Part shown: positions 12,430-36,674 of the stretch, piece by piece
Position numbering within the stretch: the first letter of the stretch is position 1
Layout of the letters: every line of letters starts with the position of its first letter
From: an uncultured Bacilli bacterium
GTDB taxonomy: Bacteria > Bacillota_I > Bacilli_A > RF39 > UBA660
Direction of reading: 5' to 3'
DNA: 56,198 nt
NCBI GenBank assembly: GCA_947601485.1
Contig: CANQGF010000001.1
Location: forward strand, 1 to 56,198
Made by a program: the position numbers and the translations under genes
The notes under the pieces: generated by a model
Seen by the model: only the letters and a program-made list of their open reading frames with translations
Told to the model about the DNA's origin: nothing
Database searches by the model: none

Positions 12430-13770
12430 ATGATTAGAGAATTCGACTATGAAAATTTACCAATCGTTGATATCGTTAATGAAATTCTTGTCGATGCAAT
12501 CAAAAAGAATGCTTCCGATATTCATTTTGACCCAACCGAAAAAGGTTTACGTATTAGAATGCGTATTGATGGTTTATTAGTTGATTATTCCAAAGCTCCT
12601 CCTAGTGTCCAAAAAAACATGATAACTCGTATTAAAATATTAGCTGGTATGAATATTACCGAATCTCGTCTTCCTCAAGATGGTGCTATCAAAAATGAAC
12701 TTGAAGGATATGATTTAGATTTACGTGTATCTTCTCTTCCTATTTCAGATGGTGAAAAAATAGTTATTCGTATCTTAGACTATACAATGAGCCTTAAAGG
12801 TTTAGATAAAATAGATTTTACCGAAGAAAATTTAGAATTAGTAAATAGTATGATTGCTACTCCTAATGGGATTATCCTTGTAACAGGAGCTACTGGTAGT
12901 GGTAAATCTACAACAGTTTACTCTATTTTACAAAGATTAAATAAGCCAGAAACTAATATTATTACTGTTGAAGACCCCGTCGAAATGAAAATTGAAGGAA
13001 TTAATCAAGTTCAAGTTATGTCAGAAATTGGTATGACTTTCGGTGCAGCTTTACGTAGTATTTTAAGACAAGACCCTAATATCATTATGATTGGCGAAAT
13101 TCGTGATGATGAAACTGCTCGTATAGCTGTTCGTGCTTCCATTACCGGTCACTTAGTATTATCTACTATCCATACCAATAACTCCTTAAATACAATTGAA
13201 AGACTTTTAGATATGGAAGTAGAAAGATATCTTTTGGGTTCGGCTTTAGAAGGTATTATTTCTCAAAGATTAGCACGTAGACTTTGTAATCATTGTAAAA
13301 AACCACAAAAAGCTACGGAATACGAAAAAAAAGTTATTAAAAAAGCAATTGGTATAGACGTTGATGAATTATATGTTCCTGTTGGCTGTGATGAGTGTAT
13401 CGGCGGCTACAAAGGTAGAATTGCAATTCATGAAGTTTTAAAAATTAATCAAGATATTAGAGATGCTATTACTTCTAATATATCAAAAAAAGATTTCCGC
13501 GTATTAGTTTATAGTAAAGCTGGTGTTTCTACTCTTTTACAAGATGGACTAAAAAAAGTAGTAGCTGGTGATACAAGTTTTGAAGAAATATTAAAATTAA
13601 TTGATATTAACGAAGACTACGTTGGTGAAGAAACAGATGACTTAAAAGCAACACTAATGGGTAAAGACCACAATTCACCTGTAAATGAAGAAGAAATAAT
13701 AGAAGCTCCTCAAGAAGAAACTAAAAAAGAAGAAAACAAAAAAGAAGATATTGAAGTTTTAGACCTTTAA
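12430..13770 (+). CDS. Type IV pilus / T2SS assembly ATPase (PilB/GspE/ComGA family)
   Basis: Walker A GATGSGKST, Asp/His boxes (IMIGEIRD, LVLSTIHTN), tetracysteine CNHC...CDEC. It has an acidic/Lys-rich C-terminal tail and lacks the long N-terminal GSPII domain. Confidence 0.9.
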   Translation: MIREFDYENLPIVDIVNEILVDAIKKNASDIHFDPTEKGLRIRMRIDGLLVDYSKAPPSVQKNMITRIKILAGMNITESRLPQDGAIKNELEGYDLDLRVSSLPISDGEKIVIRILDYTMSLKGLDKIDFTEENLELVNSMIATPNGIILVTGATGSGKSTTVYSILQRLNKPETNIITVEDPVEMKIEGINQVQVMSEIGMTFGAALRSILRQDPNIIMIGEIRDDETARIAVRASITGHLVLSTIHTNNSLNTIERLLDMEVERYLLGSALEGIISQRLARRLCNHCKKPQKATEYEKKVIKKAIGIDVDELYVPVGCDECIGGYKGRIAIHEVLKINQDIRDAITSNISKKDFRVLVYSKAGVSTLLQDGLKKVVAGDTSFEEILKLIDINEDYVGEETDDLKATLMGKDHNSPVNEEEIIEAPQEETKKEENKKEDIEVLDL

Positions 13771-13887
13771 TATCTTCTTTTATTTTGAATAAGCTAAAAT
13801 TTTAGGAATACTTTTCTATAACAAAGGCTAAAGATATATATTTAACTTATTCTATATATAAACAATAAATGTTTATACCAATATTAC

Positions 13888-15645
13888 TTATCCTACAATA
13901 AATGGATTATTTTGAGACCCATCACCAGAGGTGATTTGTGTATCAGCATTTAGATTGATAACTGGCAGAACGCCGTCCGCATTGCTGACGCGGCCGACGC
14001 TGCCGTCGCTGATGAACCCATTAATGCCACCGAACTCAACGGCGCCAGACGAGTTGGAATAACGAGGCGACATTGTCCACCACCAATAACTATGATATAG
14101 GTAATGACTTTCTGGAGCATTTCCATAATACGATATTCCTGCTAACATCATCTCATCAGTGGTTAATAATCCAATCTTTGTTTTATAATATCCTCCATAA
14201 GTTTCAGTAGTATCCGGACATGTTAAATCTGGAGTATTTTCAGTATATGTTCTATTATATGTACTATAATATGTATATCCATTATCTGTATTATTTATAG
14301 TTGTATCATTACAGAAATTACTTTCAGCAATTTTTTCATCATATTTGGCTAAGTTTTCTTTATACCAATCTTCTAAAGTTGTCTTTATTGTACTATTTGT
14401 TCCTCTATTATTTGTAAAAGAGTTTGTTCCTTTATCATATGTTGTAATACACGGATTAGATTTAGTACATGAAGTACCATTTTCATATGTAAATCCTACA
14501 TATTTTTGCCTATTACTACTTTCCCCATATGTATTAAACACTTTATTATCTTTTAATTTATCATTTAAAACTATCCTTATTGTTCCATCCCCATTTATAC
14601 GAACAATACGCCATATTTGATTTGCAAATTTTATATAATTATTTGGACTACCATTATATACATAAGTTGGTCCTTTTTCATCTTGCACTAAAATAATACT
14701 GCTAATGTAGTTTTCATTAGATTTCGGTACTCTATGTTCAGTTACTTTTGTTACTTTACTACACATACCATCTGGTTCTTCATAAGTAGTTTCGCTATTT
14801 TCAATCTTATATATTCCATAATTATCTATATCAAAAACATAGTAACCATCATACCCACTATAGTCTTCTACTTCAATTGGATTTTTTAATCTATATTTAC
14901 CATTATAAGTATCAAATTCATAGTCTAAAGATACATAACCTACATCACCTAAGTCAGGACATATACTATTAACATAAAAACTATTTAAATTATCATTATC
15001 AATAGTATCCTCATAAGCAACTACCTGGTTTTTATCTACTGGTTCTCCACTTAATCCTAATATAGCATTTGTTGCCTCAGTATTTATTCCTGCAACATTT
15101 TCAATAGTAATCTTAAAAGTAAAACTTTTATTTTCTCCATCTTGTTCAGATGTCTTTTCGTCCATCCAACTTCTTATTTGAACCGTCTTAGTTTGTTTTG
15201 GTCCTACTACTCCTGTTCCGATTATATATGATGCTGTATTATTGAAATTATCTATTTGTCTAGTATCTGTTGGTGTTGCATCAGATAGTAGTTTATAATC
15301 GTTATCTACTGCTACTTTTAAATGACTATCTGCTAATGTACTTCCTGTTTGTTTATTTAGTATTACATTATACGTTGATACTGTATCACATGTATTTGTG
15401 ATTTGTACTTCATATGCATCATTTTGCATACCTTGTTCATCTTTTTGAGGAAAACCGTTATCCATAGTTATTCCCTGTCCATTTGTTTCTGCGTAGCTTA
15501 TTTCAAAACAAGCATACGTATTTTTATTTATACCTGTTTGAGTGTGTGTTCTACTCCATATGGCATAAGTAAATGTTGTTATGGCGAGTATCAACATTAT
15601 TCCTATTATAGTTATTATTGTTATTTTACGTTTTCTTTCCTTCAT
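13888..15645 (-). CDS. Membrane-anchored surface protein (585 aa), paralog of 36675-38267
   Basis: The basic N-terminus plus a single TM segment ends in the conserved TYAIWS motif. The C-terminal module carries WRIVRINGDGTIRI, TTDEMMLAG, YWWWTMSP and VLPVINLNAD, a pattern seen in lectin-like Firmicute surface proteins. RBS GGAAGG. Confidence 0.85.
   Translation of the reverse strand: MKERKRKITIITIIGIMLILAITTFTYAIWSRTHTQTGINKNTYACFEISYAETNGQGITMDNGFPQKDEQGMQNDAYEVQITNTCDTVSTYNVILNKQTGSTLADSHLKVAVDNDYKLLSDATPTDTRQIDNFNNTASYIIGTGVVGPKQTKTVQIRSWMDEKTSEQDGENKSFTFKITIENVAGINTEATNAILGLSGEPVDKNQVVAYEDTIDNDNLNSFYVNSICPDLGDVGYVSLDYEFDTYNGKYRLKNPIEVEDYSGYDGYYVFDIDNYGIYKIENSETTYEEPDGMCSKVTKVTEHRVPKSNENYISSIILVQDEKGPTYVYNGSPNNYIKFANQIWRIVRINGDGTIRIVLNDKLKDNKVFNTYGESSNRQKYVGFTYENGTSCTKSNPCITTYDKGTNSFTNNRGTNSTIKTTLEDWYKENLAKYDEKIAESNFCNDTTINNTDNGYTYYSTYNRTYTENTPDLTCPDTTETYGGYYKTKIGLLTTDEMMLAGISYYGNAPESHYLYHSYWWWTMSPRYSNSSGAVEFGGINGFISDGSVGRVSNADGVLPVINLNADTQITSGDGSQNNPFIVG
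13962..14072 (-). other. GC-rich patch of C-ending (NNC) codons inside the 585-aa gene
   Basis: About 60% G+C by hand count, against an AT-rich gene. It encodes SPRYSNSSGAVEFGGINGFISDGSVGRVSNADGVLP and contains 11 consecutive C-ending codons (ttc atc agc gac ggc agc gtc ggc cgc gtc agc). Confidence 0.9.
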
Positions 15646-15680
15646 TACATTTATTCCTTCCTATCTTTACATCTAACTCC

Positions 15681-15708
15681 ATTATACCCCCCCCCGGTTC
15701 GTTGTAAA
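15681..15708 (-). promoter_or_regulatory. Promoter of the 585-aa gene with a G9 homopolymer in the spacer
   Basis: Minus strand: TTTACA (15708-15703), a 16-nt spacer acgaacc+GGGGGGGGG (G-run is the complement of 15687-15695), then TATAAT (15686-15681). Confidence 0.55.
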
Positions 15709-15738
15709 GCAGAAAGTTCGTGGTTGACATTTTTGCAT

Positions 15739-15763
15739 GAAAAAAAAGAAGATTGCTCTTCTT
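15739..15763 (-). terminator. Intrinsic terminator after the prepilin peptidase gene
   Basis: aagaag/cttctt hairpin overlapping the stop codon, followed by T8 on the minus strand. Confidence 0.6.
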
Positions 15764-16517
15764 ACAAATAAAATACTTCTAAGATATGATTTATTGGGCC
15801 AGTTAAGATAAAGACTATTAACAAAGCAGTAATTAGAAAGGGTCCTAAAGGCATTTCATCACCCTTATTTTTTAAAAGCACATAACAAGCATATGGTAAA
15901 GCGATAAAGGAAGATAAAATTAAAGCTACTAAACCTAATTTAAATCCTAAAACTGTTCCCATTATCATCGCTAGTTTAATATCTCCTCCCCCTAAAGATT
16001 CTCGTTTAAAGACCTTATCACCAAATAATTTAATTAAAATCATAACCCCCATCATTAAAAGACCAAAACCTAAGCCTAGTAAAACTTCCTTAAGTCCCCC
16101 ATTTAAATATTTAGTAATTAAAATTAATAATTCAAATATTACTAAAGGTCCATCTAAAATTATATAATATTTAAAATCACTAACAAAAATAATAATTAAT
16201 AAAGAAGAAATACATAACATTATTAAAGTATTATAACTAAATCCATAAATCTTAAAACTTAAAGCAAATAGGATACCTGATAAAGTTTCAATAAGGGGAT
16301 ACATTAATGATAATTTTTCTTCACATTTACGACATTTACCTTTTTGAATTATAAAGGAAATAATCGGAATTAATTCATACCACTTTAATTTATGTTGGCA
16401 ATATTCGCAATGCGAAGCAGGTCTTACAATCGATTGATTTAAAGGACGACGCATGCCAATTACGGTATAAAAGGAACCAAAGACAGCTCCTAAAATAAAT
16501 AAATATACATAAATCAT
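15762..16517 (-). CDS. Prepilin peptidase (A24 family, PilD/ComC-like)
   Basis: Zn-finger-like CEYC...CRKC, a multi-TM body, and a GGGDIKL catalytic Asp motif. Start moved to the ATG at 16517, 8 nt after AAGGAG. Confidence 0.88.
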   Translation of the reverse strand: MIYVYLFILGAVFGSFYTVIGMRRPLNQSIVRPASHCEYCQHKLKWYELIPIISFIIQKGKCRKCEEKLSLMYPLIETLSGILFALSFKIYGFSYNTLIMLCISSLLIIIFVSDFKYYIILDGPLVIFELLILITKYLNGGLKEVLLGLGFGLLMMGVMILIKLFGDKVFKRESLGGGDIKLAMIMGTVLGFKLGLVALILSSFIALPYACYVLLKNKGDEMPLGPFLITALLIVFILTGPINHILEVFYL

Positions 16518-16530
16518 AAAGTTGTACTCC

Positions 16531-18306
16531 TTACATAATATTGTTGTATAAGTCAAACATCGGGATTATAACAGCTAAAATAATTGCTCCAACTACAACG
16601 GCTAAAGATGTAATCATAATTGGTTCAATAAAGCTTTTTAAATTATTGACTATTCCCCTATGTTGTTCTTGATAATATTTACTAACATTTTCCATCATTG
16701 CTGCTAATTCCCCTGTCGATTCACCAGTTACAATCATGTAATAAGCAACATCAGGAATTGCCCAATGGTCTTTAAAAGATTCTGATATTTTCTCTCCTCT
16801 AGCAATATTAGTAATCGTATTATACATAATTTCCTTATATATTTCATTATTCGTTACTTTACTTAATATTTCAATACTTTCGGTAATAAAGACATTATTT
16901 TTAAGTAAGGAAGCAAAAGTTTTAGTAAATATTGTCATTTCATTATAAATCATAACTTTCCCAATAATCGGGACATGCATTAATAAAGTTTGCATATTCT
17001 TACGGAAAAATTTAACCTTTTTATAAGCTACAACTAATACTAAAATAATAGCAAAAGCAATTAGTAAAATCACCGAGATATTATTCTTCAAAAAATTACT
17101 AGCATCAATAATCGCTTTCGTAAAGCCATTTATAGTAACTCCGGCGGTATCATATACTTGAGTAAATTTAGGAATAACATACAATAAGATAAAAGTAATA
17201 ACAGCTCCTGAAAATATTGTAATAATAGCAGGATAAGTCATTGCACTAACCATTTGTTTACGTGTCGATTCTATCTCTCGATAATAATTAGCCATATCAT
17301 TTAAAGTTTCTTCTAATTCTCCTGTTGCCTCTGCGGCTTTTAACATATTAATTAAAAGAGAAGGAAAAACATTACCTTGTTTAGCTAAAGCATCACTAAA
17401 AGCTGCCCCCATAGTAAGTTCATAAATAATCTTTTCAAATACTCTTTTTCGATTTTTCTTTTTACCCATTTGATTAGATAAAATTTTAACAGAATCTGTT
17501 AAAGGAATACCCGATTTAACATACGTATATAATTGCGTAAGCCAAAAGATTAAATCCTTATTGCTCATCTTAGCTCCCCCAAAGCTAGGTTGACCATATA
17601 AGAAATTTATCATATTACTAGTTTTAATACTATAAACATCATAACCTTCATTAACTAAATACGCATTAACATCTAATTTAGAACTACCCGTAAAAGTTCC
17701 CGTTACCATTTTTCCTTTTGGGTCAATGGCTTTATAACGAAAGGCTACTGGTTTATCCGTTCTTTTAACATCACCACTAGCTAAGTCGCTAATTAAAATT
17801 TCTTTTTCAGCTTGTAATTTTCCATTTAACTGACGATTAAGTTTATTTTTTTCTTTTAAAGCTTTTTGTTCTTCTCGATGTTTCGCTTGACGTTCTTTCA
17901 TTATTTTACGACGGTCTTTTTTATTTATCATTACATTAGAATTACTAACTAGTTCATTACTCGTATCAGCAGCCAGTTCTTTAGGAACACTTTTTTTGGA
18001 AATCTGCTCATTAAGGGTCATCTTTTTTATCGTCTCAGCATCTAATTTACTTTTTGCTGTAGCCATTTCTGCTTCTTTTTTCGCTTTTTCTTCTCTTGAT
18101 TTTTTGGTTGCTTCTTGCATCATTTTCCCAGGTATAGTTCCAAAAATATATTTTAAGCCTTTTAAAGCATATAATAATATATTAGTTAATGGTTTACTTA
18201 AAAAAGAAAGAGTTGAAGTAATCCCTAAAATAGCCCATTTAAAAATACTAAATAAGCCAATAAATGGATATAAAATAAATGACGTTGATTTAGAAGATTT
18301 ATCCAT
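16531..18306 (-). CDS. PilC/GspF-family platform protein with a roughly 185-aa N-terminal extension
   Basis: The canonical PilC start (FRYKAIDPKGKMVTG...) appears only at about residue 189. The preceding part has a hydrophobic segment plus a Lys/Glu-rich coiled-coil-like region. Two T2SSF repeats follow. Confidence 0.88.
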   Translation of the reverse strand: MDKSSKSTSFILYPFIGLFSIFKWAILGITSTLSFLSKPLTNILLYALKGLKYIFGTIPGKMMQEATKKSREEKAKKEAEMATAKSKLDAETIKKMTLNEQISKKSVPKELAADTSNELVSNSNVMINKKDRRKIMKERQAKHREEQKALKEKNKLNRQLNGKLQAEKEILISDLASGDVKRTDKPVAFRYKAIDPKGKMVTGTFTGSSKLDVNAYLVNEGYDVYSIKTSNMINFLYGQPSFGGAKMSNKDLIFWLTQLYTYVKSGIPLTDSVKILSNQMGKKKNRKRVFEKIIYELTMGAAFSDALAKQGNVFPSLLINMLKAAEATGELEETLNDMANYYREIESTRKQMVSAMTYPAIITIFSGAVITFILLYVIPKFTQVYDTAGVTINGFTKAIIDASNFLKNNISVILLIAFAIILVLVVAYKKVKFFRKNMQTLLMHVPIIGKVMIYNEMTIFTKTFASLLKNNVFITESIEILSKVTNNEIYKEIMYNTITNIARGEKISESFKDHWAIPDVAYYMIVTGESTGELAAMMENVSKYYQEQHRGIVNNLKSFIEPIMITSLAVVVGAIILAVIIPMFDLYNNIM

Positions 18307-18413
18307 TTATAACTTCCACCTTTCTTATTCTTATCCATAATAAGTATAACATAGTTTATTAGTAAATTAAACTTTTTTAGGCCTCTTACATATAATTTAT
18401 TAGGTGAGGTTTT

Positions 18414-18707
18414 ATGTTTGGAAATAATTTTGGTGGTCCAATAATTAGAAGTAGTTTTACTCTACCCCGTATTTTAAATGGCCTTTCTAAAACTTTAGGC
18501 GTTGTAAATCAAGCTCTCCCTTTATATAGACAAGCTAAACCTATGATAAAAAAAGGTCAAACTTTATTTAAAATGGCCAAGGAAATGACTAAAACTTCTG
18601 TTTCTTCTAAACCTGTATCTAAACCTAAAACCCTAAATAATACAGAGCAAAAAAACATTTCTTTAAAAAGAAATGCTTCTTTAAATAAACCTATATTTTT
18701 TCAATAA
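18414..18707 (+). CDS. Small basic protein (97 aa), unknown (weak YqfQ/VrrA-like feel)
   Basis: ORF with RBS GGTGAGG. Only a loose motif resemblance, so the function is not supported. Confidence 0.55.
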   Translation: MFGNNFGGPIIRSSFTLPRILNGLSKTLGVVNQALPLYRQAKPMIKKGQTLFKMAKEMTKTSVSSKPVSKPKTLNNTEQKNISLKRNASLNKPIFFQ

Positions 18708-19121
18708 TTATTTGATAGTTTTCTTACTTTTAATAGCTAAGCCATAAATAAGTTCGACAACAAGTAAAACAGCACAGCCAATATTAACATATTTAACATA
18801 TTCTAGTTTGTCGCCGATAAGTTCAATCGCATTTACAGAACCCATAATATTAACAAATAACATTACGACAATACCTATAGAAATTAAAATATTCATAACT
18901 AAAACAGTAGTATTGCGCGTGTAGGCATTAATTAAAGCAATTAAACCATTAAAGATACTTAGAATTAATGGTAAATAAATCAAGAAACGATATATTGTAT
19001 CATTATCCTCCAAACGTACTATAACATTGCTAAAATCAACAACTGTTGGAATATATAACATAACATATACACCAATAGCAATAAGGCCGCAACCAACTAG
19101 TAAATTAATAATTGTTTTCAT
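18708..19121 (-). CDS. Integral membrane protein (137 aa, 4 TM helices)
   Basis: Hydrophobic ORF directly downstream of the TadC-like gene. RBS AGGAGG. Confidence 0.7.
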   Translation of the reverse strand: MKTIINLLVGCGLIAIGVYVMLYIPTVVDFSNVIVRLEDNDTIYRFLIYLPLILSIFNGLIALINAYTRNTTVLVMNILISIGIVVMLFVNIMGSVNAIELIGDKLEYVKYVNIGCAVLLVVELIYGLAIKSKKTIK

Positions 19122-19136
19122 AATTCCTCCTACTTT

Positions 19137-19832
19137 CTATTTTACCATATTTAAAAACATGGGTAATACAATAATTAAAACTAAAATAATACTAATAAAT
19201 AAAAACGACACTAATTTTACATATATTGGTAACTTATGCATTTTTTTCTGTTTCTCATAATGTTCTTGTTTCTTAATATATTCTAATTCCATTTTCACTG
19301 AATTAGTTATATTATTACCAAATTTATTAGTATTTATAATATTAATAATAATATTTTGGACCATTTCATTAGGTATTCTATTTTGAAAATCTTTTAAACA
19401 AGTATTTAAATCTTTACCAAGTTCTAAAGCTTGCAAGCTACCCTTTAAATCATAAGCTAATTCCCCCGCAACACTTTCACAAGCCTCTTCTAAAGCTTCT
19501 TTTAAACTATTGCCACTTTCTAATGCTAAAAGAACAGCTTCAAAAAAATATAAGGCTTCTTTCGCTATCGTCTTAGCTCTTTGCTTTAAAGGAATATCAA
19601 AACAAATATATTCCACTAAATAATAATATAATACAGTCATCACTGGTGAAGTAATATAACTAAAGGGAAAAATTACTAAACCTACCAGAAAAATACAAAT
19701 AGATGCAAGTAATCTTTTATTTAAAAAATTATAAATATCATAATTACTATCAAGACCTAATAAGTGAACTTTTCTTTTTAAACGATTAATAGTTTGAGGT
19801 AGATATAATTTTTTAATAATATCACTTTTCAT
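19137..19832 (-). CDS. TadC-like T2SSF-domain membrane protein
   Basis: Single T2SSF-type domain (ALESGNSLKEALEEA...LGKDL) flanked by TM helices. Its start overlaps the upstream gene by 4 nt. Confidence 0.75.
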   Translation of the reverse strand: MKSDIIKKLYLPQTINRLKRKVHLLGLDSNYDIYNFLNKRLLASICIFLVGLVIFPFSYITSPVMTVLYYYLVEYICFDIPLKQRAKTIAKEALYFFEAVLLALESGNSLKEALEEACESVAGELAYDLKGSLQALELGKDLNTCLKDFQNRIPNEMVQNIIINIINTNKFGNNITNSVKMELEYIKKQEHYEKQKKMHKLPIYVKLVSFLFISIILVLIIVLPMFLNMVK

Positions 19833-20830
19833 TTCTTACTACCTCCTAACAATTTTCTTATAACTAAATAATATAAGACATAAAGTAAAATAATAGTTAT
19901 TAGAACAAAAGGTCCAATCTTCATATCTTTTAAGATAGCAAAGTAATTTCTTTTCCATATTAGAAGGCCGATTATGACAAAAAGAGGTATTAACATAACT
20001 ATCTTAGTTAAGACTTTTAAAGGGGAAATAACTACTTTAGCTTCTTCCATCATATTTTGTTCATCTAAGAAATTTTTCTCGATAATATTAAATATTTGTC
20101 TTCCATCGCCACCCTCTTTATTTAAAAGACTTAAAGTAGTCCATATATATTTAAGTTCTGGTATTTTAATTCTTTCATAAAATCTAGCAAAAGCTTTTTC
20201 TAAAGAAAGACCATAAGCTAAATCTTCCGATACTTTCGCAAATTCTAAGCCAATCGCTCCCTTAAACTCTTTACTCACCATATTAATACTTTGATAAATG
20301 GTAAAACCAGATGCTAAAGCACTATTAATATAAATAATAGCTCGCAAAATTTCGCCTCTAACTGCTCTTTTCTTTTTTTGTAACTTTAAAATAAAGAAAA
20401 CATCAACACTATAAAAGCCTACTATAAAAGTTACAATTATACTTAGAAGACGCCATATATTAAGTGAATTAAAACTTGTAATAATATTTATAAAACATAG
20501 AAAAAAGGCTACTAATAATTTAATACTAATACAATCATAAGGACTAAATTTACTATCATATTCTAAATACTTTTCATATTTTAAAGCTAAATTAGGAAAA
20601 TAATTTTTCTTTTTTAATCTTTTAGCTAACTTATTAACGATATTATAAAGCCACGTAGCAAGACGTTCAAATAAAGAAAGTTCAGAGTCATAAGCTGAGG
20701 TAATAGCAAAATCGGTAATTCTTCTTTCAAACTTAATTGATTTGGAAGTTTCGTAGACATAAATAAAAGCTGTCAGTAAAACCATCCCAATAATTAAAGG
20801 AATAATTAAAATTTTCCATATTATATTCAT
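19829..20830 (-). CDS. TadB-like T2SSF-domain membrane protein
   Basis: T2SSF-type domain (INSALASGFTIYQSI...AYGLSLEKAF) plus TM helices. Confidence 0.75.
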   Translation of the reverse strand: MNIIWKILIIPLIIGMVLLTAFIYVYETSKSIKFERRITDFAITSAYDSELSLFERLATWLYNIVNKLAKRLKKKNYFPNLALKYEKYLEYDSKFSPYDCISIKLLVAFFLCFINIITSFNSLNIWRLLSIIVTFIVGFYSVDVFFILKLQKKKRAVRGEILRAIIYINSALASGFTIYQSINMVSKEFKGAIGLEFAKVSEDLAYGLSLEKAFARFYERIKIPELKYIWTTLSLLNKEGGDGRQIFNIIEKNFLDEQNMMEEAKVVISPLKVLTKIVMLIPLFVIIGLLIWKRNYFAILKDMKIGPFVLITIILLYVLYYLVIRKLLGGSKK

Positions 20831-20849
20831 GTTATGGCTCCTTTCTTTT

Positions 20850-22220
20850 TTATTTTTTTAGAAATGGTAAATCCATTTTCGTACTACTTGGGGCTTTTAA
20901 ATTAGAAAACATATCATCAACGGAAGTAATTCCTCTAACTTTTAATTTTTGATATACTTTCGGAACTTTTTCAATAAATTTATATTCTCCACTAACTTCC
21001 CCACTATCAGTTACTCCAAATTGATTAAAGACAAAAATATCATTTAATTGAATTTTATCATCGACAATTCCAGCAATTTCACATATTTTCGTAATTTTTC
21101 TTTTCCCATCACTTTGTCTTTCAATATGAATAACTAAATCAATAGCATTATTAATATATTCTCTAATAGCTTTAATAGGTATTTCAATTCCGGACATTAA
21201 AACCATTGTTTCAAGACGATTTAAAGCATCTTGAGCACTATTAGCATGCATCGTTGTAATTGAACCCTCATGCCCAGTATTCATGGCTTGTAACATATCA
21301 AAAGCTTCTTTTCCACGAATTTCCCCAACAATAATCCGGTCCGGACGCATACGTAAGGCATTAATAACTAAATCACGAATAGTTATTTCTTTATTTTTAT
21401 CATAATTACTGCTCTTTGTTTCTAAAGCAATAACATGGTCTTGTTTTAATCTTAACTCCGAAGCATCTTCAATTGTAATAATTCGTTCATTATTATCAAT
21501 AAAATCACTCAAAGTATTAAGTAATGAGGTTTTCCCAGAAGAAGAACCACCACTAATAATCATATTTAATTTACCCTTAATAGCTGCCTCTAGAAAACGA
21601 GCCATCCAAGGAGTTAAAGAACCCATCCTAATTAAATCTTCAATAGAAGAATTATTATTTTGAAACTTTCTAATAGTAATAACTGGTCCCTTCACAGCTA
21701 AAGGCGGAATAACAGCATTAATCCTCGCTCCATTTTCTAAACGAGAATCAACCATCGGATTAGTAGCATCAATAGTTTTTCCTAAAGGACTAATCATTTT
21801 TCTAATAGTCCTAATAATATGTTCATCATTAATAAAAGAAATACTTTCATCTTTAATAATCTGACCATTTATTTCAATATAAATTTCTTTTGGACTATTA
21901 ACCATTATTTCACTAATATTTTCATCTTCTAAAACTTCCGTTAAAGGTCCATAGCCATTAATTTCATTATCAATTAAATTATAAATATGATTACGTTCTA
22001 AATTAGTTAAATCATAACTGGCTATAACTTCTTCAATCTGAGCATTAATAAAATTCATATCCTTATCTTGAGGCATTTTCGTATCAATAATTTTTTCTAC
22101 TATCTTAGTTCTTAAAGCATCTAATAATTTCTTATCAGGAAAAATATCATAATCAGTCATTATTTGTTTTTTATAAGTTTTCTTCTTAATATTAAAAGCA
22201 TCTAATAAACTATCCTTCAT
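20850..22220 (-). CDS. CpaF/TadA-family secretion ATPase
   Basis: Walker [10 protein letters not shown] and [39 protein letters not shown], typical of CpaF/VirB11-like ATPases. Confidence 0.9.
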
Positions 22221-22983
22221 GTTCTTCCTCCTCTAAGATAAAATCACTAGCCATGGTCATAAAAGTTGTATACTCATTAGCAAACTTTCTTTCCACTTTA
22301 TCTTCTAGTAAAATTATCTTACCTGCCATTATATAATCATCGATATTACGAATATAAAACTTAGGTGATAAAGTATAATCTATATTAGCTTTTAAAATAT
22401 TTTTAATATCATATAAAGTAAAATAATTCTTAAAAGGATTAACAGCATTATTTAATAAAACTTTATAATTAGTTTTTCCTAAATCTCTAAAAATACTAAG
22501 TAAAGATTTTAAATTCTTAATATCAAAAGGGTCATTAGTCATCACAAATAAAATATTATCTACTCTTTCTAAAAGAGATAAATTAATTTCATTTATATTA
22601 TGATTAGTATCTATTAAAACCATATCATAAGCTAAAACAGCTCTATCTAAAATTAAATCAATATAACGCGCATCCAGGCGACCTGCTTGTCGAGGGTCTT
22701 TAGGACTTGCTAAAAAATCAATATAATCATTATATTTAGTGACATAATCATTTAAAGAATTATATTGGTTATTATCAATATCATCAGCTAAATTAACTAA
22801 ACTTTTTTCATAGTTTTTATTTAAAGCAACAGCAATAACTCCACTCGTTAAATCAAAATCAATTATTAAAGTTTTCTTCCCTAATTTGGCATAAGTTCCT
22901 GCTAAATTAATTAAAGTTGTAGTTTTCCCTACTCCTCCTTTAGCAGAAGTTATACATAAAGATTTACCAATTTTCTTTGCCAT
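22210..22983 (-). CDS. CpaE/TadZ-like ParA/MinD-family ATPase
   Basis: Deviant Walker A SAKGGVGKTT. It sits first in the Tad-like operon. Confidence 0.8.
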   Translation of the reverse strand: MAKKIGKSLCITSAKGGVGKTTTLINLAGTYAKLGKKTLIIDFDLTSGVIAVALNKNYEKSLVNLADDIDNNQYNSLNDYVTKYNDYIDFLASPKDPRQAGRLDARYIDLILDRAVLAYDMVLIDTNHNINEINLSLLERVDNILFVMTNDPFDIKNLKSLLSIFRDLGKTNYKVLLNNAVNPFKNYFTLYDIKNILKANIDYTLSPKFYIRNIDDYIMAGKIILLEDKVERKFANEYTTFMTMASDFILEEEEHEG

Positions 22984-25119: not shown

Positions 25120-26763
25120 TTACTTTTCTAATTTATCAATATAGGTATAATACCATAATTGAAAAATATAATAAGAAAATAAAACCTTTATTTCTTCTAA
25201 TGATAAACTATTATTTTTTAACTTGTTTAATAAATCTTGCATACTATTTATCTTAAACAATCTTTGGTTTTTCAAATCTTTTATTTGGGAATATTTTAAA
25301 ATATCATCTTTAAATACGGTATAAATCCAAATTTTTAAAGGTATACCAAACCCCTTCTTAGATTTATTTAACATATCTTGAGGAATATAATTATCCAAAA
25401 GTTTTTTTAAAATATATTTTTTATTGCGATGATTATATTTAAATTTATGATTTAGTTTTAAAGATGTCTCTACCAAATCATTATCTATAAAAGGATGAGT
25501 TACCGCTAAATCATAGTGAGTAGAAGATATATTTTGTTTTAAAAACAAACGATTAGCTAAAAAGGTTTGAATATCATTTAACATAAATTTTATCTGCGGT
25601 TTTAAATGTTTAGTAGATACAACACTATATCCATTAGGAATAACATCAATAATCTGTTTAACAACACTATCTCTACTTACACCCATACGATATATATTTT
25701 GAACATCTTGATAAGAATACTTTTCATTATTCATAAGACTATTAGAATATTTTAAAATGCCTTTCACTTTATTTTTAATGAAAAATGTATCATACACATT
25801 AGATCCACAAAATAATTGATCTGCTCCATCTCCAGAAACAAAAACATCAATATCTTCATTTTTAATTTTATCATTTAAAAATATAATAGGAATAATTGAA
25901 GGATCAGATAATAAATCAGCATAAAGAAAAGGTATTTTATGTGTAATAGCTAAAACTTTCTCTTCTTTTAAATAATATTCATGATGGCAAGTTTTTAAAT
26001 ATTGAGCTATTTCTTTAGCGTTAGTAGCTTCATTTCTCTCTTCATCAAAAAAGCCAACTGTATAAGTATTTAAATCATTTACATTTAATTTTTTTAATAA
26101 AGAAGAAATTAAAGTTGAATCAATCCCTGCTGATAAAAGAACACCAATTTTTTCTTTGTCTTTTATTCTAAGCTTTAAAGCATTTAAAAGTTTACTTTCT
26201 AATTCTTTTAATGCTTCCGATTCATTTTTAATTTTATTTTTATTTAAACAATATTCATTTTCAATATTATAATATTTATCTAATGTTACCTTTTTTTCAT
26301 AAATAAGAGCTGTTCCCGCTTGTAATTTATAAACATCTTCAAATATTGTATATGGTGCTTGAATATAATCATATACTAAAAAATTACTTAATTGCTGATG
26401 ACTTATCTTTAATTTTTTAGAATAAATTTTAATTATATTGGCTAAATTATTAGTACAGATAAATGTCCCTTTTTCTTGATAGTAATATAAATTTTTACTA
26501 CCTAACCCATCACGTACTAAAATAATTTGGCCATTTATTATTAAAATCAAAGCAAATTCACCATTTAATTTTTTGAATAGTTCTTGACCATAAATATTAT
26601 ATAATTTGAGTATTTTCTTTTCTAAAGATAATTTATTATTAAAATTATTTAAATCATCGAGATTATAAATATTTCCTATTAAAAAACAATAAGATTTATT
26701 TAAATCTTTCTTTTTATTATTAATATATAATTCTTTTTTATTTTTTACTATTGCAATTTCCAT
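25120..26763 (-). CDS. Asparagine-synthetase-like amidotransferase lacking the N-terminal Cys
   Basis: PP-loop SAGIDSTLISS and an AsnB-like C-terminal domain. The N-terminus is MEIAIV.. rather than MCG... ATG at 26763 follows GGGAGG. Confidence 0.8.
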   Translation of the reverse strand: MEIAIVKNKKELYINNKKKDLNKSYCFLIGNIYNLDDLNNFNNKLSLEKKILKLYNIYGQELFKKLNGEFALILIINGQIILVRDGLGSKNLYYYQEKGTFICTNNLANIIKIYSKKLKISHQQLSNFLVYDYIQAPYTIFEDVYKLQAGTALIYEKKVTLDKYYNIENEYCLNKNKIKNESEALKELESKLLNALKLRIKDKEKIGVLLSAGIDSTLISSLLKKLNVNDLNTYTVGFFDEERNEATNAKEIAQYLKTCHHEYYLKEEKVLAITHKIPFLYADLLSDPSIIPIIFLNDKIKNEDIDVFVSGDGADQLFCGSNVYDTFFIKNKVKGILKYSNSLMNNEKYSYQDVQNIYRMGVSRDSVVKQIIDVIPNGYSVVSTKHLKPQIKFMLNDIQTFLANRLFLKQNISSTHYDLAVTHPFIDNDLVETSLKLNHKFKYNHRNKKYILKKLLDNYIPQDMLNKSKKGFGIPLKIWIYTVFKDDILKYSQIKDLKNQRLFKINSMQDLLNKLKNNSLSLEEIKVLFSYYIFQLWYYTYIDKLEK

Positions 26764-26764
26764 T

Positions 26765-27853
26765 TTACCTCCCAAAAGTTTTAATTAAAAACTCCCATTT
26801 TTGAATTATTTTCTTTTTAGCATAAATATTTTTGACTTTAGCTGCTTCTTTAGCTAAACTTTTTCTTAAACTAGCATTTTCTAATACTTTTCTTAAAGCT
26901 TTTTCTAATTCTTTGACATTGTTTTTAGGAATAATAAGACCATTTTTCCCATTTTCAATTATAGTACCTATGGCTTTAGAAGAATTAGTAGAAATAACCG
27001 GTAAGGCTAAACTCATCGCTTCAATTAAAGCATTAGGCATACCTTCATAATTAGAGGGTAAAACAAAAACTTGAGCTTTGCAAATATGAGATCTAACATT
27101 ATTTGTATTTCCTTTTAAAATTACTCTATCTTCTAATTTTAATGAATTAATAAGTTTTTGGAGTTTAACCTTTTGACTTCCTTTGCCATATATTTCTAAT
27201 TTATAATGATTATAATCTTTGGGTAATTTAGAAAAAGCTTTAATTAATAGTTGAAAGTTTTTTTGTTTTTCTAATCTTCCGACACTAACAATTTTGTTTT
27301 CCCTTTTTTCTAAATGCTCATAATTTTCAAAATCTTCGGAAAGAAAATTAGGAATAAGATAAATTTTATTTGAAGAAATTCTTTTTAAATATTTAGCATA
27401 AGATTTATCTTGAATAATAAATCCATCTGCTTTTTGATAAAAATAATTTCTAATTATTTTTAAAAATCTAAACTCTTTTTGGGGATGATTACGAATAGCT
27501 ACCAATATTGGAATATTAAAAGATTTTTTTAAACTTAATCCTCTAATTGTTGGTTCTGGCAAGAAAGTAAAGATTAAATTAGGGCTTTCCTCTTTTATCA
27601 CCTCTTTTAATCTTTTACTTCTTGCTAAACTTAATTTAGTTTTTATTTTTTTTAATCCTTTTTCATTTTGTTTATTATCTTTATCTAAACATATATGTTT
27701 AATTTTTTTATTTAATTTGTATTCTGGTTTACTATTAATATTAGTAATAATAGTAATATCATATGTTTTAATAAATTCGTTAGCCAAATTGACAACCGTC
27801 TGCTCTGTTCCTCCCCTTGCTAAAGTCATTGTATAAAAGATAATTTTTTTCAT
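26765..27853 (-). CDS. Glycosyltransferase (GT4-like, GT-B fold)
   Basis: GGTEQ N-terminal motif and C-terminal EGMPNALIEAMSLALPVIST (E-x7-E type). Confidence 0.8.
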   Translation of the reverse strand: MKKIIFYTMTLARGGTEQTVVNLANEFIKTYDITIITNINSKPEYKLNKKIKHICLDKDNKQNEKGLKKIKTKLSLARSKRLKEVIKEESPNLIFTFLPEPTIRGLSLKKSFNIPILVAIRNHPQKEFRFLKIIRNYFYQKADGFIIQDKSYAKYLKRISSNKIYLIPNFLSEDFENYEHLEKRENKIVSVGRLEKQKNFQLLIKAFSKLPKDYNHYKLEIYGKGSQKVKLQKLINSLKLEDRVILKGNTNNVRSHICKAQVFVLPSNYEGMPNALIEAMSLALPVISTNSSKAIGTIIENGKNGLIIPKNNVKELEKALRKVLENASLRKSLAKEAAKVKNIYAKKKIIQKWEFLIKTFGR

Positions 27854-29550
27854 TTTAAACCTCGACATAACTTTTTATAAGTACTATTTTCTTCTAATAA
27901 TTTTTTATGTTTTCCTTTAGCTATTAAGTTACCATTTTCTAAAACCATTACTTTATCAGCAATTAAATTAAAATGAAAATCATGCGTAATCATAATAATT
28001 GTATAGTCTTTTTTTAATTTTAAAATAATATCTTCAATATCCTTCTTAGAAATAGGATCTAAATTATTAGTTACCTCATCAAGTAATATTACTTTGGAAT
28101 TAGATAGTAAAGCACGAGCTAAAGCTAATTTTTGTTTTTCTCCCCCACTTAAATTAGCGGCATCTTCATTAATAATAGTATCATAACCATCTTTTAAAGA
28201 ATTAATTTTAGCACTAAGGCCAACTAAAGCACAGACTTTCTTTATTTTATTAAAATCGTCATCAATTATAGCTAGATTATTTTTAATAGACATATTAAAA
28301 ATAAAAGGTTGTTGAGTTACTAAAGAGACACTTTCCCTAATACTTTCTTCTTTTAAACTATTAATATTATAATTATCTAAAAAAATACTTCCTTTTAAAA
28401 CATCATCAGTTTTAGTTATTAAAGAAAATAACGTAGATTTACCACTACCTGTATGACCAACTATTGTAACAAACTCCCCGGCTTTAATATGAAAATTAAT
28501 ATTCTTTAAATGAAATTTATCATGATAGGAAAAATAAACATTTTTAAAAGTAATATTACCTTGATAATCTTTCATTTCTAAATTACCAAACTTTTCTGTT
28601 TGGTAATCTAAAATAGTCATTATTCTTTGCAAAGATAGATTAAATTTACCAAAATGATTAATTAATTGAGCCATTTTATTTGAAAAAGTAAATACTCGAT
28701 TACGATACATAAATATCATAATAAATGTAGATGCTAATAATAAGTTATTTTTAATGAGTATTACCGATAATAAAAGCATTCCTCCTGTAGAGACTGTTTC
28801 TAAAAAACGCGTTAATTTATTTGTATAATCAATATACATTTGACTTTTATATTCTAAGGCCCCTATTTCTTCAAAGGAATTATCCGTCTTATTTTTAAAA
28901 TTATCTTTTAATTTTAAAACTTTAATATCTTTAGCACCTTTTATTACTTGACCTAACAAAGAAGCATTATAATCTAGTTTGTTTAAATTTTCTTCTTTAT
29001 AATATAAACTTTTTTTTATACCATAAAAATGAATTAACAACAACACTAGAGTACAAACAAAATAATAAAGACCAATTATTTTATTTAAATAAAATATAAC
29101 AAATAAAACACCAATATTACTGATAACTAAAACTAAACTATCTTTAATATAACCTAAATAAGTGGCAATATAATTGGAATCATCTTTGATTCGATTTAAA
29201 AATTTTCCTTGGCCTTCATCTTTTATAGTAGAAAGTTTTAAATTTAAAACGACATTACAAGCCTTTTTTCTTATTCCTAAAACTATTTTCTTTTGGAATA
29301 CTAAATAAGTTTTAGTTATAAGTAAATTACAAAAGAAAATACCCATTTCTAAAAAGCCGATTAAAAATACTAACAAAATAGAAGTTTTAAATTTACTTTC
29401 TAAAATATGATTGATAAGCATTCCTCCAATAGAAGGAGAAATGCTCGACATTACAGCAACAATTAAAGTAAAGATTAAAAGAACAATTAATTCTTTATGA
29501 CAATTTTTTAAAAATAAACGACATGATTTAATATTTTTCCAAAAACGCAT
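27850..29550 (-). CDS. ABC exporter, fused permease-ATPase (MsbA/PglK-like)
   Basis: Six TM helices in the N-terminal half. Walker A GHTGSGKST, signature LSGGEKQ, Walker B ILLDE. Confidence 0.88.
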   Translation of the reverse strand: MRFWKNIKSCRLFLKNCHKELIVLLIFTLIVAVMSSISPSIGGMLINHILESKFKTSILLVFLIGFLEMGIFFCNLLITKTYLVFQKKIVLGIRKKACNVVLNLKLSTIKDEGQGKFLNRIKDDSNYIATYLGYIKDSLVLVISNIGVLFVIFYLNKIIGLYYFVCTLVLLLIHFYGIKKSLYYKEENLNKLDYNASLLGQVIKGAKDIKVLKLKDNFKNKTDNSFEEIGALEYKSQMYIDYTNKLTRFLETVSTGGMLLLSVILIKNNLLLASTFIMIFMYRNRVFTFSNKMAQLINHFGKFNLSLQRIMTILDYQTEKFGNLEMKDYQGNITFKNVYFSYHDKFHLKNINFHIKAGEFVTIVGHTGSGKSTLFSLITKTDDVLKGSIFLDNYNINSLKEESIRESVSLVTQQPFIFNMSIKNNLAIIDDDFNKIKKVCALVGLSAKINSLKDGYDTIINEDAANLSGGEKQKLALARALLSNSKVILLDEVTNNLDPISKKDIEDIILKLKKDYTIIMITHDFHFNLIADKVMVLENGNLIAKGKHKKLLEENSTYKKLCRGLK

Positions 29551-29552
29551 AT

Positions 29553-30677
29553 TTACACCTCTTTACCTAAAAGTTGCTCATAAACTTTAACATACTCTTT
29601 TAAAATATTATTTATACTATATTCTAAGATAGCTGGTTGATTATTCTTGCCTAAAGTTTTAGCATAACTATAATTTTCTTTTAAATAATTTATTGCCGTT
29701 ATCAATGCTTTAGCATCATTAAGAGGAACAACTAAACCATTAACTTTATTGGTAATTAAATCACGATTTCCTCGGCAATCAGTAACTATTATTGGTTTTT
29801 CTTTATACATAGCTTCCATAATATTTAAAGGTAAACCTTCTTGTTTACTAACGGAAATTACTAAATCAGCAATATCCAATAAATTAGCAATATCAGGACG
29901 AAAGCCTAAAACTTTGACTCTATCTTCTAAATGAAACTTTTGAATATAACTATTGATATCAGAAGATAGATTAGATCGTCCTGCTAGTAATAATTTAATA
30001 TTTTTATCTTTAATTTGGGCCATAGTTTTAATAAGATATTTTTGTCTTTTTCGTTTTGATATTTCGGCAATATATAATATAACAAAATCATTTTTACTTA
30101 AGCCTAAATGCTGACGATATTGAAATTGTTCTTTTAAAGTTAATTTAGTTTTTAATCTGTTTTCATTAAATCCTATACCCTTTATATATTTAACAACTGT
30201 TTTAAAATGTTTTTGAGCAAATTTATAATCTTCTTCATTAATTGTAATTAAAACGTCAGTATATTTAATTAAATACCGTTCTACGGGATAATAAATTAAA
30301 TAATTTAACCAAGGACACCCTTTAAAAAAATGAAACCCATGCGCAGTATAAATTAATTTTGTCTGTTTTAATTTTATTGCTTTTGCCGAAGCTAAACGGG
30401 CGACAACTCCACCCATAGGAGTTGAGCAAGAAATTAAAGAATATTTTTCTTGAGCAATTACTTTGCGTAATTGCCAAATAGCTTTAATATTTTGCCAATG
30501 AAAAGGAGTTCTAGAAATAGGAATTTTAATTTTTTTAGTAGCATAAGGAAGTAAAAGGTCAGTATTATTAGCAAGATGTACTTCATAACCTTTTTTTTGA
30601 AAATATTCTAAATAAGCTAAATAGCATAATTCTAAATGAAAATCACTATTTGCTACAAAAAGAATTTTTTTCTTCAT
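29553..30677 (-). CDS. Glycosyltransferase (GT4-like)
   Basis: GT-B layout with SKQEGLPLNIMEAMYKEKPIIVTD. Confidence 0.8.
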   Translation of the reverse strand: MKKKILFVANSDFHLELCYLAYLEYFQKKGYEVHLANNTDLLLPYATKKIKIPISRTPFHWQNIKAIWQLRKVIAQEKYSLISCSTPMGGVVARLASAKAIKLKQTKLIYTAHGFHFFKGCPWLNYLIYYPVERYLIKYTDVLITINEEDYKFAQKHFKTVVKYIKGIGFNENRLKTKLTLKEQFQYRQHLGLSKNDFVILYIAEISKRKRQKYLIKTMAQIKDKNIKLLLAGRSNLSSDINSYIQKFHLEDRVKVLGFRPDIANLLDIADLVISVSKQEGLPLNIMEAMYKEKPIIVTDCRGNRDLITNKVNGLVVPLNDAKALITAINYLKENYSYAKTLGKNNQPAILEYSINNILKEYVKVYEQLLGKEV

Positions 30678-30685
30678 ACTTCCTC

Positions 30686-31825
30686 CTATATTTCTATTTC
30701 TCCATTAATATCACAAAAATAAATTTTAAATAAGCCCCGATATTCCGGATATACTTTTAAATATTCTTTAGTAAAACGTTTTTCTATTTCTTTTTCGTAT
30801 TGAGGGTCTATTAAAGCCATATAATAGCCCCTAAATCCTGCCCCAGAAAATCTTCCACCGTAAATGCCTTTCGTTTTTTGAGCAATTTTATGCAGTAATT
30901 CTAAAGGCTTTGAACCAGTTTGGTATTTTTTTATCGAAGAAGAACCCGAAGCAAAAATATATTTACCAAAATTTACTAAGTCCCCTTTTTCAAAATATTT
31001 AATTCCTTTAGTAACTCGTTTCATTTCTTCATAAAAATGTTCAGCCCGCAATACTTGTTGCGCAGGTAAATATTTTTGATATCTTTTAAAATTTTGATAT
31101 CTTATATTTCCTAAATAAGCATCATCATATTCAATTTCTTGATTTTTTAAAAAATTATTTAAAGAAAAGGCCGCACTTTTACACTCATCTACTCTAACAT
31201 TGTAAATAGTATCACTTAACTTTTTAGAAAGCCCTGAATAGACTAAACAAATTTTAAAATGCATTTTCTTTTGCGGTTTAATTAAATGATATTCTTGCTT
31301 TTTGATATCTAAATAAAGCAAACTATTTTTTTGACAATATATTTCACAAGCTGGGTCTAAAATACCCACCTTATTGTGCATATATTTACGTTCAACTTTT
31401 TGAACTAAATTAATAATTTTTTCTTTAGTTAATTGAATATTATTAACTTTGCATAAAGCACTTATATAAGAAATAATAATTGCTGAAGAAGAAGCTAAAC
31501 CACCCGTAGGAATTGACTTTTCAATATATGCTTTAATGCCCTGTTTTAAAAAATATTCTTCTTGTAAAACTTTAATACTCCCTACCAGATAATCAAGCCA
31601 AGAACCATCAAACTTTGGCAAAGAGGTATAATTAAATATTACTTTTTGAGCATAGTTTTCACAAATAATATTAAAATTACCATTTTTTAACGCTCTATAA
31701 TGCATTGTTATTCCATAATTAATAGCAAAACCCGTTACTTTGCCTAATTGATGATCAATATGAGCTCCTAAAGGACAAACCCGAAAAGGAACAAAAGATT
31801 TATATTCATATTTTAATTTTAGCAT
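30686..31825 (-). CDS. GHMP-family sugar kinase (galactokinase-like)
   Basis: N-terminal RVCPLGAHIDHQ, GHMP motif PTGGLASSSA, C-terminal RFSGAGFRG. Confidence 0.8.
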   Translation of the reverse strand: MLKLKYEYKSFVPFRVCPLGAHIDHQLGKVTGFAINYGITMHYRALKNGNFNIICENYAQKVIFNYTSLPKFDGSWLDYLVGSIKVLQEEYFLKQGIKAYIEKSIPTGGLASSSAIIISYISALCKVNNIQLTKEKIINLVQKVERKYMHNKVGILDPACEIYCQKNSLLYLDIKKQEYHLIKPQKKMHFKICLVYSGLSKKLSDTIYNVRVDECKSAAFSLNNFLKNQEIEYDDAYLGNIRYQNFKRYQKYLPAQQVLRAEHFYEEMKRVTKGIKYFEKGDLVNFGKYIFASGSSSIKKYQTGSKPLELLHKIAQKTKGIYGGRFSGAGFRGYYMALIDPQYEKEIEKRFTKEYLKVYPEYRGLFKIYFCDINGEIEI

Positions 31826-31855
31826 TACTATCCCTCTTTCATGATTAAGGAAAGA

Positions 31856-36602: not shown

Positions 36603-36640
36603 AATTTCACAACCAATTCTTTAACCCTTTTAATTTTTAA

Positions 36641-36672
36641 AGAAGCCAATGTTGCCATTGGCTTCTTTTTTT
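36641..36672 (-). terminator. Strong hairpin terminator after the 530-aa gene (bidirectional)
   Basis: agaagccaatg-ttgc-cattggcttct, flanked by A and T runs. Confidence 0.6.
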
Positions 36673-36674
36673 AA

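Follow-up and report, generated by a model that had tools for sequence, protein, structure and literature searches.

A G+C-rich, probably retroelement-written variable region in a DUF6273-like protein gene of an uncultured Bacilli bacterium, and a matching template repeat in a related genome

The closest described counterparts of the locus reported here are diversity-generating retroelements (DGRs), in which a variable region (VR) of a target gene is rewritten from a template repeat (TR). In the archetypal Mtd DGR of Bordetella phage BPP-1 (PMC3240598), AAY codons are converted to NNY codons, and both Avd and the reverse transcriptase (RT) are required. Remote targets are an established mode of DGR action (PMC5758913), and the DGR of Treponema denticola has seven non-adjacent targets (PMC5758913, PMC4891356); the largest survey of DGRs in metagenomes states that remote targets are undetectable by it (PMC8144416). 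The DUF6273 domain is a C-type-lectin-like DGR target in which the VR occupies the C-terminus of the domain as a β-hairpin with flanking loops (PMC10743442, PMC11792537); its likeness to C-lectins is taken here from PMC10743442. The DGR mechanism, the target fold and remote targets are, in other words, already known. The present locus is a 111-nt patch on the minus strand of contig CANQGF010000001.1, from an uncultured Bacilli bacterium (assembly GCA_947601485.1), near the 3′ end of the gene for a 585-aa protein, P0001. This patch is very probably a VR written by DGR mutagenic retrohoming. The window analysed is the whole contig and the entire record, 56,198 nt in length, with no further sequence beyond its ends on the same record.

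The patch has a G+C content of 61.3%, against a contig mean of 26.3% (111-nt windows, standard deviation 6.1%), and ranks first for G+C among all 111-nt windows of the contig, followed by tRNA genes; its A content is 14%. C-ending codons make up 52.8% of the 36 codons that lie fully within it, compared with 5.9% of the 14,876 codons in the other open reading frames (ORFs) and 5.5% in the remainder of the same gene. Eleven C-ending codons stand in series (TTC ATC AGC GAC GGC AGC GTC GGC CGC GTC AGC, encoding FISDGSVGRVS); the longest such run in the other ORFs is 4, and the chance expectation for runs of 11 is about 4e-10. The patch is in frame with its ORF, is flanked by the framework motifs WWWTMSP and LPVINLNAD, and ends 24 codons before the stop codon. 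Both motifs are kept in a paralog on the same contig, in which the loop between them is unrelated and A+T-rich (33% G+C, 9% C-ending codons) and contains K, E, Q, M and W, none of which can be encoded by NNY codons. The paralog is an internal control for a non-templated loop that has undergone no DGR rewriting. A preliminary description of the contig had given the patch about 60% G+C by hand count in an A+T-rich window and had remarked on the switch to C-ending codons, with 11 consecutive ones, and on the conserved motifs that enclose an unrelated A+T-rich loop in the paralog; all of these hold when measured.

The closest homologs of P0001 include several from a metagenome-assembled genome (MAG) of another uncultured Bacilli bacterium, GCA_947594925.1 (27–31% G+C), in which many paralogs are dispersed among housekeeping genes. 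Several paralog loops have a common, unusually G+C-rich framework at the DNA level (TCG CCT NNT NAT NCC NAC TCG TCT NNC GCC NNT GAG TTC NNT GGC...). The G+C-rich loops vary chiefly at codon positions 1 and 2, and the loops of other paralogs are A+T-rich in the usual way. Among the family loci collected, an adenine-tolerant scan detected non-coding TRs downstream of two of the genes, P0002 in locus L001 and P0004 in locus L006, and in these repeats all variable positions are adenines. The TR reads ...TCG CCT AAT AAT TCC AAC TCG TCT AAC GCC AAT GAG TTC AAT GGC AAT AAT GGC AAC ATC AAC AAC AAC AAC GTC AAC AAT ACA AAC GGC GTT CTG CCAG. Within the L001 cis TR/VR pair there are 14 differences, and 14 of the 14 are at template adenines. 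A scan of genome contigs with the framework pattern, which required GGT where the TR has AAT, returned only two VRs, both from GCA_947594925.1.

The same adenine-specific relation holds between this TR and the VR of the window. The two match at 80 of 102 aligned bases, 37 of the 102 being TR adenines, and 21 of the 22 mismatches fall on those adenines (hypergeometric p = 7e-11), with 15 A→G, five A→T and one A→C substitutions. By codon position, ten of the 22 are at the first, ten at the second and two at the third. The lone non-adenine mismatch is a C→G change at a third position, so that 64 of the 65 non-adenine positions agree with the L001 TR; the window VR also has one 9-nt insertion relative to it. 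The coordinates of the patch are exactly those of the TR-homologous segment, TGTCGCCT...CTGCCAG. The DGR reading offered in the preliminary description is thus upheld, and a near-copy of the kind for which it had advised a search, with all but one of the mismatches at template adenines, exists in a related genome. The L001 TR has 43% G+C and 36% A, compared with 61% and 14% in the window VR. Because the TR has only 43% G+C, the anomalous composition of the patch is a residue of adenine replacement and not the mark of a foreign donor. The template of the window VR would probably have read TGTCGCCTAATAATTCCAACTCGTCTAACGCCAATGAGTTCAATGGCAATAATGGGAACATCAACAACAACA, then 9 nt close to ACGTCAACA, then ACGTCAACAATACAAACGGCGTTCTGCCAG. 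As an observation apart, the VR of P0004 (L006, 11636–11738) has four mismatches to its own cis TR at positions other than adenines, which hints at further TR variants, a TR used in trans, or TR drift; a GGG codon is common to the P0004 VR and the window VR.

The 3′ border of the repeats is conserved in part. TR/VR homology stops after CCAG, where VRs go on with TTATCAATC... and TRs with ATTCCTACTAG..., and the G+C-rich 3′ end of the window VR is identical to that of both the L001 VR and the L001 TR. A G+C-rich repeat end with divergence immediately after it is also found in BPP-1, and the segment GGCGTTCTGCCAG may have a role like that of the initiation of mutagenic homing (IMH) site. The adjoining 24-nt, VR-specific flank is identical in DNA among the target genes of the window, L001 and L006, although the proteins are only about 55% identical; it may function in target recognition.

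Canonical DGR cassettes are found on more distant members of the family, from gut metagenomes. A profile-guided scan of metagenome contigs provided 80 further family loci, and in L061, L065, L068, L072 and L075, TR/VR pairs have 81–100% of their mismatches at adenines, with the TR some 350 nt 3′ of the VR. L068 and L075 each have, in this order, the target, the TR, an ORF of 132–133 aa and an ORF of 424–429 aa. The longer ORF is an RT, which scores above the Pfam RVT_1 cut-off and has a YIRYMDD motif. The shorter is Avd-like, with E-values of 8.7e-8 for NF033474 DivGenRetAVD and 0.0018 for Pfam bAvd; both scores fall short of the curated cut-offs, and the size and position of the ORF fit Avd. 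The family order (target, TR, avd, RT) differs from that of BPP-1 (target, avd, TR, RT), as does the RT motif IGCLTNQ of the metagenome cassettes, although that of locus L093 is IGNMTSQ. By tblastn, the RT/Avd pair adjoins family genes in nine loci, and it has no match in L001–L010, which represent the rabbit-gut MAG set and related assemblies. The RT family of these cassettes is abundant in gut metagenomes. L092 is a complete small cassette, consisting of the target end, hairpin, TR, spacer, avd and RT. In L093, avd and RT immediately precede the start of a family-like gene and no TR separates them from it, which implies that the RT can sit upstream of the target in this lineage, the TR presumably being 3′ of the target. 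Two RT homolog searches returned only human-gut and other sources and no RT from GCA_947594925.1; one RT homolog found only at NCBI, P0246, comes from another assembly. Viral contigs matched neither the exact patterns for the VR/TR framework, the TR and the spacer core nor a protein-based scan, and metagenome contigs did not match the exact TR pattern.

The predicted structure of P0001 agrees with a DGR target. Its full-length AlphaFold2 model has a mean predicted local distance difference test (pLDDT) score of 78.8, with values above 90 across most of residues 320–585. Since β-sandwich matches to the N-terminal domain dominated the full-length fold search, the C-terminal domain (residues 318–585) was modelled separately, giving a pLDDT of 88.5 and a predicted TM-score of 0.90. 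Its best Foldseek match in the PDB is 9qa6, the IgA peptidase of Thomasclavelia ramosa (E 5.8e-6, 306 aligned columns, 14% identity), whose N-terminal domain is annotated as DUF6273 (PMC12402451); this best solved-structure match differs from the present protein in having a metallopeptidase part and neither a DGR nor a VR. The top matches among predicted viral structures (BFVD) are DUF6273 phage proteins, and the direct match to a C-lectin structure is weak (Epstein–Barr virus gp42, E 0.8). In sequence, Pfam DUF6273 (PF19789) is matched by nine of 60 family members (best E 2.5e-6), and P0107 falls short of the cut-off (E 0.0032). The domain is accordingly best described as predicted DUF6273-like, a published DGR target fold, in keeping with the earlier suggestion that the framework resembles lectin-like DGR targets. 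In the model, the VR forms strands 522–531 and 534–541 and the loops after them, with the pLDDT minimum at residues 549–551; its place in the ORF is close to the 3′ end, within a domain of the lectin-like type. The N-terminal helix and β-sandwich are presumed to be an anchoring or fibre-forming part. Among the 60 family members, four match Peptidase_M73 (PF12389, camelysin/TasA-like; best E 3.8e-9) at the N-terminus and ten match Pilin_N weakly; a Pfam search of P0001 gave neither hit, and the label for its N-terminal domain is a lead only.

None of the retroelement machinery was detected in the window, as the preliminary description had stated. No TR was found in the 56,198 nt by adenine-tolerant ungapped scans with the patch, a general repeat search or adenine-bias-filtered self-BLAST; the [YF]xDD motif of RTs is absent from 45 of 45 window ORFs of at least 110 aa; and the RT and Avd of the related cassettes have no tblastn match in it. 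The place where a cassette would be expected is empty as well. In L001 and L006, the stop codon of the target is followed by a hairpin, a palindromic element, the TR, a conserved non-coding stretch of about 260 nt, the palindromic element once more and a terminator-like hairpin. The strong post-stop hairpin of cassette-bearing loci reads CCAAGACTTTG...CAAAGTCTTGG, and the palindromic element GGTATAAACG...GTTTATATAG, also written GGTATAAACG...TTTATATAG. A stretch of about 505 nt comprising this cassette and the hairpin is absent from the window and from L004, in which the stop codon is followed by a single palindromic element. What the window retains is the G+C-rich VR end and the 24-nt flank, identical to the L001 pair. 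Because the TR, spacer RNA, Avd and RT are absent and the cassette site is empty, the gene is either a remote target served in trans or a recent loser of its template.

The RT-less cassette looks like a module open to gain or loss. A search of the TR cassette against Rfam matched no family. The spacer core GGAAACAAG..T.TTCC.TG, also given as GGAAACAAGNTNTNNTCCNTG, is common to the RT-less cassettes and to the spacers that precede avd in canonical ones. In the Bordetella system, the spacer belongs to the functional RNA. The conserved stretch 3′ of the TR is in keeping with an RNA that consists of TR and spacer and serves an RT whose gene lies at another place. A set of four imperfect palindromes (GCAGATTTTnAAAATCTG) was also seen 3′ of the target gene or cassette (L006, 12463–12580; L004, 1650–1770).

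In the mechanism proposed for the window VR, an RT/Avd complex would copy an RNA with an adenine-rich TR into cDNA, with misincorporation opposite the adenines of the template, and this cDNA would take the place of the matching stretch in the 3′-terminal part of the target gene, so that AAY codons become NNY codons. Such rewriting would leave C or T fixed at third positions, lower the A content (36% to 14%) and raise G+C (43% to 61%) in a genome of 26% G+C. The rewritten segment would form the C-terminal β-hairpin and loops of the DUF6273-like domain, yielding a variable ligand binder at the cell surface; the protein is presumably displayed there and binds a ligand. There is every likelihood that the same DGR chemistry wrote this copy in this very genome. 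The chances that the patch is still being diversified appear about even. The agreement of 64 of 65 non-adenine positions with the template of another species speaks for recent writing, as do the C-ending codons, which have not decayed in a genome where such codons amount to 5.9%. This low decay is not decisive, because the 3′ flank next to the VR is also about 95% identical to L001.

Several points weigh against retrohoming as the source of the patch. The case is built on the TR, Avd and RT of other genomes and on none from the source genome, and the matching TR belongs to a different species-level genome. To yield the window VR, a TR would have to differ from that of L001 by one C-to-G change and the 9-nt insertion. 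The post-stop hairpin is missing, and if it is needed for retrohoming, the window copy may be inert. Finally, P0001 itself has no Pfam hit at E-values up to 1 and no significant NCBIfam hit; it is a divergent DUF6273 relative that fails the curated sequence threshold, and its assignment comes by way of structure prediction and homologs.

The missing hairpin, the single palindromic element in the window, compared with two around the hairpin, TR and spacer in L001 and L006, and the lack of a TR, Avd and RT in the 56 kb would also be expected if the VR had been written by a DGR once, had lost its TR cassette by recombination between the bracketing palindromic repeats, and now evolved as ordinary coding DNA. 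The VRs of L004, which is cassette-less, and of L006, which bears a cassette, indeed show several non-adenine mismatches to the known TRs, indicating that VRs are not always in step with a template. Such a loss is a serious possibility, at somewhat below an even chance. Yet the window VR has a single non-adenine difference in 65 positions from the TR of another species, and its 11 C-ending codons stand undecayed, with the reservation that the 3′ flank imposes; moreover, a G+C-rich loop with no TR is what the family shows most often, and remote targets are functional in other DGRs (PMC5758913). It is rather improbable that the C-terminal segment was imported together with its VR from a paralog or another strain, having been DGR-written there, so that retrohoming never acted on this copy: the bases at adenine-derived positions are unique to the window copy among all VRs retrieved, and an import of this kind would keep the DGR origin and shift only the site of writing. 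It draws on the mosaic identity of the window gene with P0002 (80–90% of DNA positions in the N-terminal part, 50–60% in the middle, 76–83% at the 3′ end) and on the occurrence of allelic replacement in the family. In two human-gut strains (L040, 8950–10800, and L041), the whole family gene differs by 15–25%, whereas the flanking 8–10 kb on each side are about 99% identical, which points to allelic replacement or paralog recombination atop any DGR activity; this comparison, of a distant relative, did not isolate VR-only variation.

A further origin, raised in the preliminary description beside that of a remote or orphan VR, is a mosaic patch from a G+C-rich donor. The remote or orphan VR is supported, and the donor is not. 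By composition alone, 61% G+C in a contig of 26% might indeed suggest a foreign patch or an assembly chimera, but this is extremely improbable, as the reading frame and the conserved framework residues continue unbroken through the patch, and the same DNA framework recurs in a MAG that is just as A+T-rich, both in several paralogs and in the non-coding TR. The TR has no more than 43% G+C, and the excess arises from adenine replacement, 15 times of 21 by G. The search for a donor by similarity to the patch found no similar DNA in phage or plasmid collections. A G+C-rich donor and an assembly chimera were both rejected on these grounds, and selection on codon usage alone was rejected since it leaves the adenine-specific mismatches unexplained.

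The family to which the gene belongs is large. P0001 has 828 homologs, nearly all without a Pfam domain and many with Y/S/N/G/D-rich loops at the corresponding place; its own cluster has a single member. In a census of 93 family loops, drawn from all fetched loci, about 45 are G+C-rich and A-poor, and that of the window is the most G+C-rich of the 93. A cis TR accompanies only about 10 of the roughly 45 G+C-rich loops, and at least 20 have no TR despite at least 2 kb of downstream sequence. On a 251-kb contig, VRs about 40 kb apart have one DNA framework, with the variation at codon positions 1 and 2. Same-framework VRs on one contig are consistent with several remote targets of one template. 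A tentative extension, which is on the whole doubtful, is that, in this lineage of gut Bacilli, many surface-protein paralogs at scattered sites depend on one Avd/RT pair, some of them with a portable RT-less TR-plus-spacer cassette, which could come and go by way of the palindromic repeat around it, and others, the window gene included, with an empty site and rewritten in trans from a TR at another locus. If true, the DGR would be a distributed one, drawing on multiple templates for its many targets and invisible to RT-anchored DGR finders. At least two family genes per contig, with the same VR framework and no TR nearby, were also noted in L026 (57–185 and 2049–2177) and in L041/L069 (contig OLVR01000011.1).

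Among described systems, the T. denticola DGR likewise has its VRs at a distance from the RT, in several surface-protein paralogs, and it resembles the present family in its adenine-specific differences from the TR and in the VR at the C-terminal end of a lectin-like domain. Its target domain is of the FGE-sulfatase type, whereas that of the window gene is DUF6273-like. Unlike in T. denticola, some targets of the related MAG carry their own TR-plus-spacer with no adjoining Avd or RT, and the number of G+C-rich family loops without a cis TR appears large. As in BPP-1, the proposed conversion is from AAY to NNY with the aid of Avd and RT. Unlike in BPP-1, the hairpin of the family comes 3′ of the stop codon, at a distance of about 90 nt from the VR, and the window lacks it. 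The gut-phage tentaclins (PMC10743442) and the Faecalibacterium prophage targets (PMC11792537) belong to the same fold family by structure search, with the VR as a C-terminal β-hairpin and loops, but they are phage receptor-binding proteins in compact phage cassettes. The window target, in contrast, is chromosomal, has an N-terminal helix and β-sandwich (camelysin/TasA-like in some homologs), stands at the end of a pilus-like gene string and has no cassette on its contig.

The searchable literature appears to hold no account of a chromosomal helix, β-sandwich and DUF6273-like family as a DGR target, nor of two features seen in related loci only, namely the expansion of this family to many paralogs per genome and RT-less TR-plus-spacer cassettes with empty-site alleles. 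The locus indicates that a DGR VR can be recognised from composition alone, by NNC codons and adenine depletion, even though the retroelement is off-contig; surveys miss such cases (PMC8144416). It also connects targeted hypermutation with a large surface-protein family of uncultured gut Bacilli, which counts hundreds of homologs and many paralogs per genome; its proteins are likely variable ligand binders, adhesins or receptors. RT-less cassettes and empty sites suggest how templates and targets get reshuffled.

Table 1. Features of the window, followed by those of related loci (positions are of the window unless a locus is named).
Feature	Position	Strand	Remarks
Target gene P0001, 585 aa	13888..15645	-	Hydrophobic helix at the N-terminus, then a beta-sandwich, an insert of low model quality and the variable domain at the C-terminus
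N-terminal helix (residues 1-33) and beta-sandwich (~46-185)	15091..15645	-	Secondary structure of the model
Predicted DUF6273-like (C-type-lectin-like) domain, residues 318-585	13891..14694	-	VR at its C-terminal end
VR (proposed)	13962..14072	-	TGTCGCCT...GGCGTTCTGCCAG; last two bases of the M525 codon, S526-P561, first base of V562
G+C-rich 3′ end of VR, GGCGTTCTGCCAG	13962..13974	-	Identical in window VR, L001 VR and L001 TR
VR-specific 3′ flank, TTATCAATCTAAATGCTGATACAC (VINLNADT)	13938..13961	-	24 nt; not in TRs
Palindromic element, GGTATAAACATTTATTGTTTATATATAG	13852..13879	-	Directly 3′ of the target stop, single copy (downstream-region alignment of L001, L006, L004 and window)
Paralog, 530 aa	36675..38267	-	37% identical (BLASTP); both framework motifs kept
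ParA/CpaE-like	22210-22983	-	Pilus-like string
T2SSE ATPase	20850-22220	-	Pilus-like string
Two T2SSF	19829-20830; 19137-19832	-	Followed by a 137-aa ORF
T2SSF/PilC-like	16531-18306	-	Pilus-like string
Prepilin peptidase A24	15762-16556	-	Adjoins target
Second T2SSE ATPase	12430-13770		Converges on target gene
TR, non-coding	L001 11983-12084		118 nt 3′ of the P0002 stop codon; GCA_947594925.1
Second TR, non-coding	L006 11926-12028		3′ of P0004
TR-plus-spacer cassettes, no adjoining avd/RT	L001 11867-12440; L006 11811-12402		Each bracketed by two palindromic-element copies
avd (114 aa) and RT (609 aa)	L093 2466-4987		RT with IGNMTSQ, YIRYMDD and a long C-terminal extension

A minus-strand string of genes resembling those of type IV pili or type II secretion systems (T2SS) lies in the region 12430–22983, with the target gene as its last member (Table 1). 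The product of the target gene might therefore be pilus-associated, but family genes in other genomes lie among housekeeping genes. Its position in the string makes a connection between diversification and a surface appendage open to test.

Directly upstream of the paralog is a glycan-synthesis cluster (region 25120–38267) that includes a Wzy_C O-antigen ligase-like gene (35361–36602), a DUF6020 gene (34060–35364) and, as judged by eye from N-terminal sequences, putative genes for glycosyltransferases and for a radical SAM enzyme. The paralog is followed by a gene for a Y-family DNA polymerase (38432–39706). Further along, a tRNA-Ala gene (40057–40133) precedes three tandem units of about 360 nt (40161–41093), and genes for a large serine recombinase (42462–44162), a helix-turn-helix regulator (45183–45779) and a Mob_Pre relaxase (46972–48267) are also present. 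The region 40057–48267 looks like a mobilisable element integrated at a tRNA gene.

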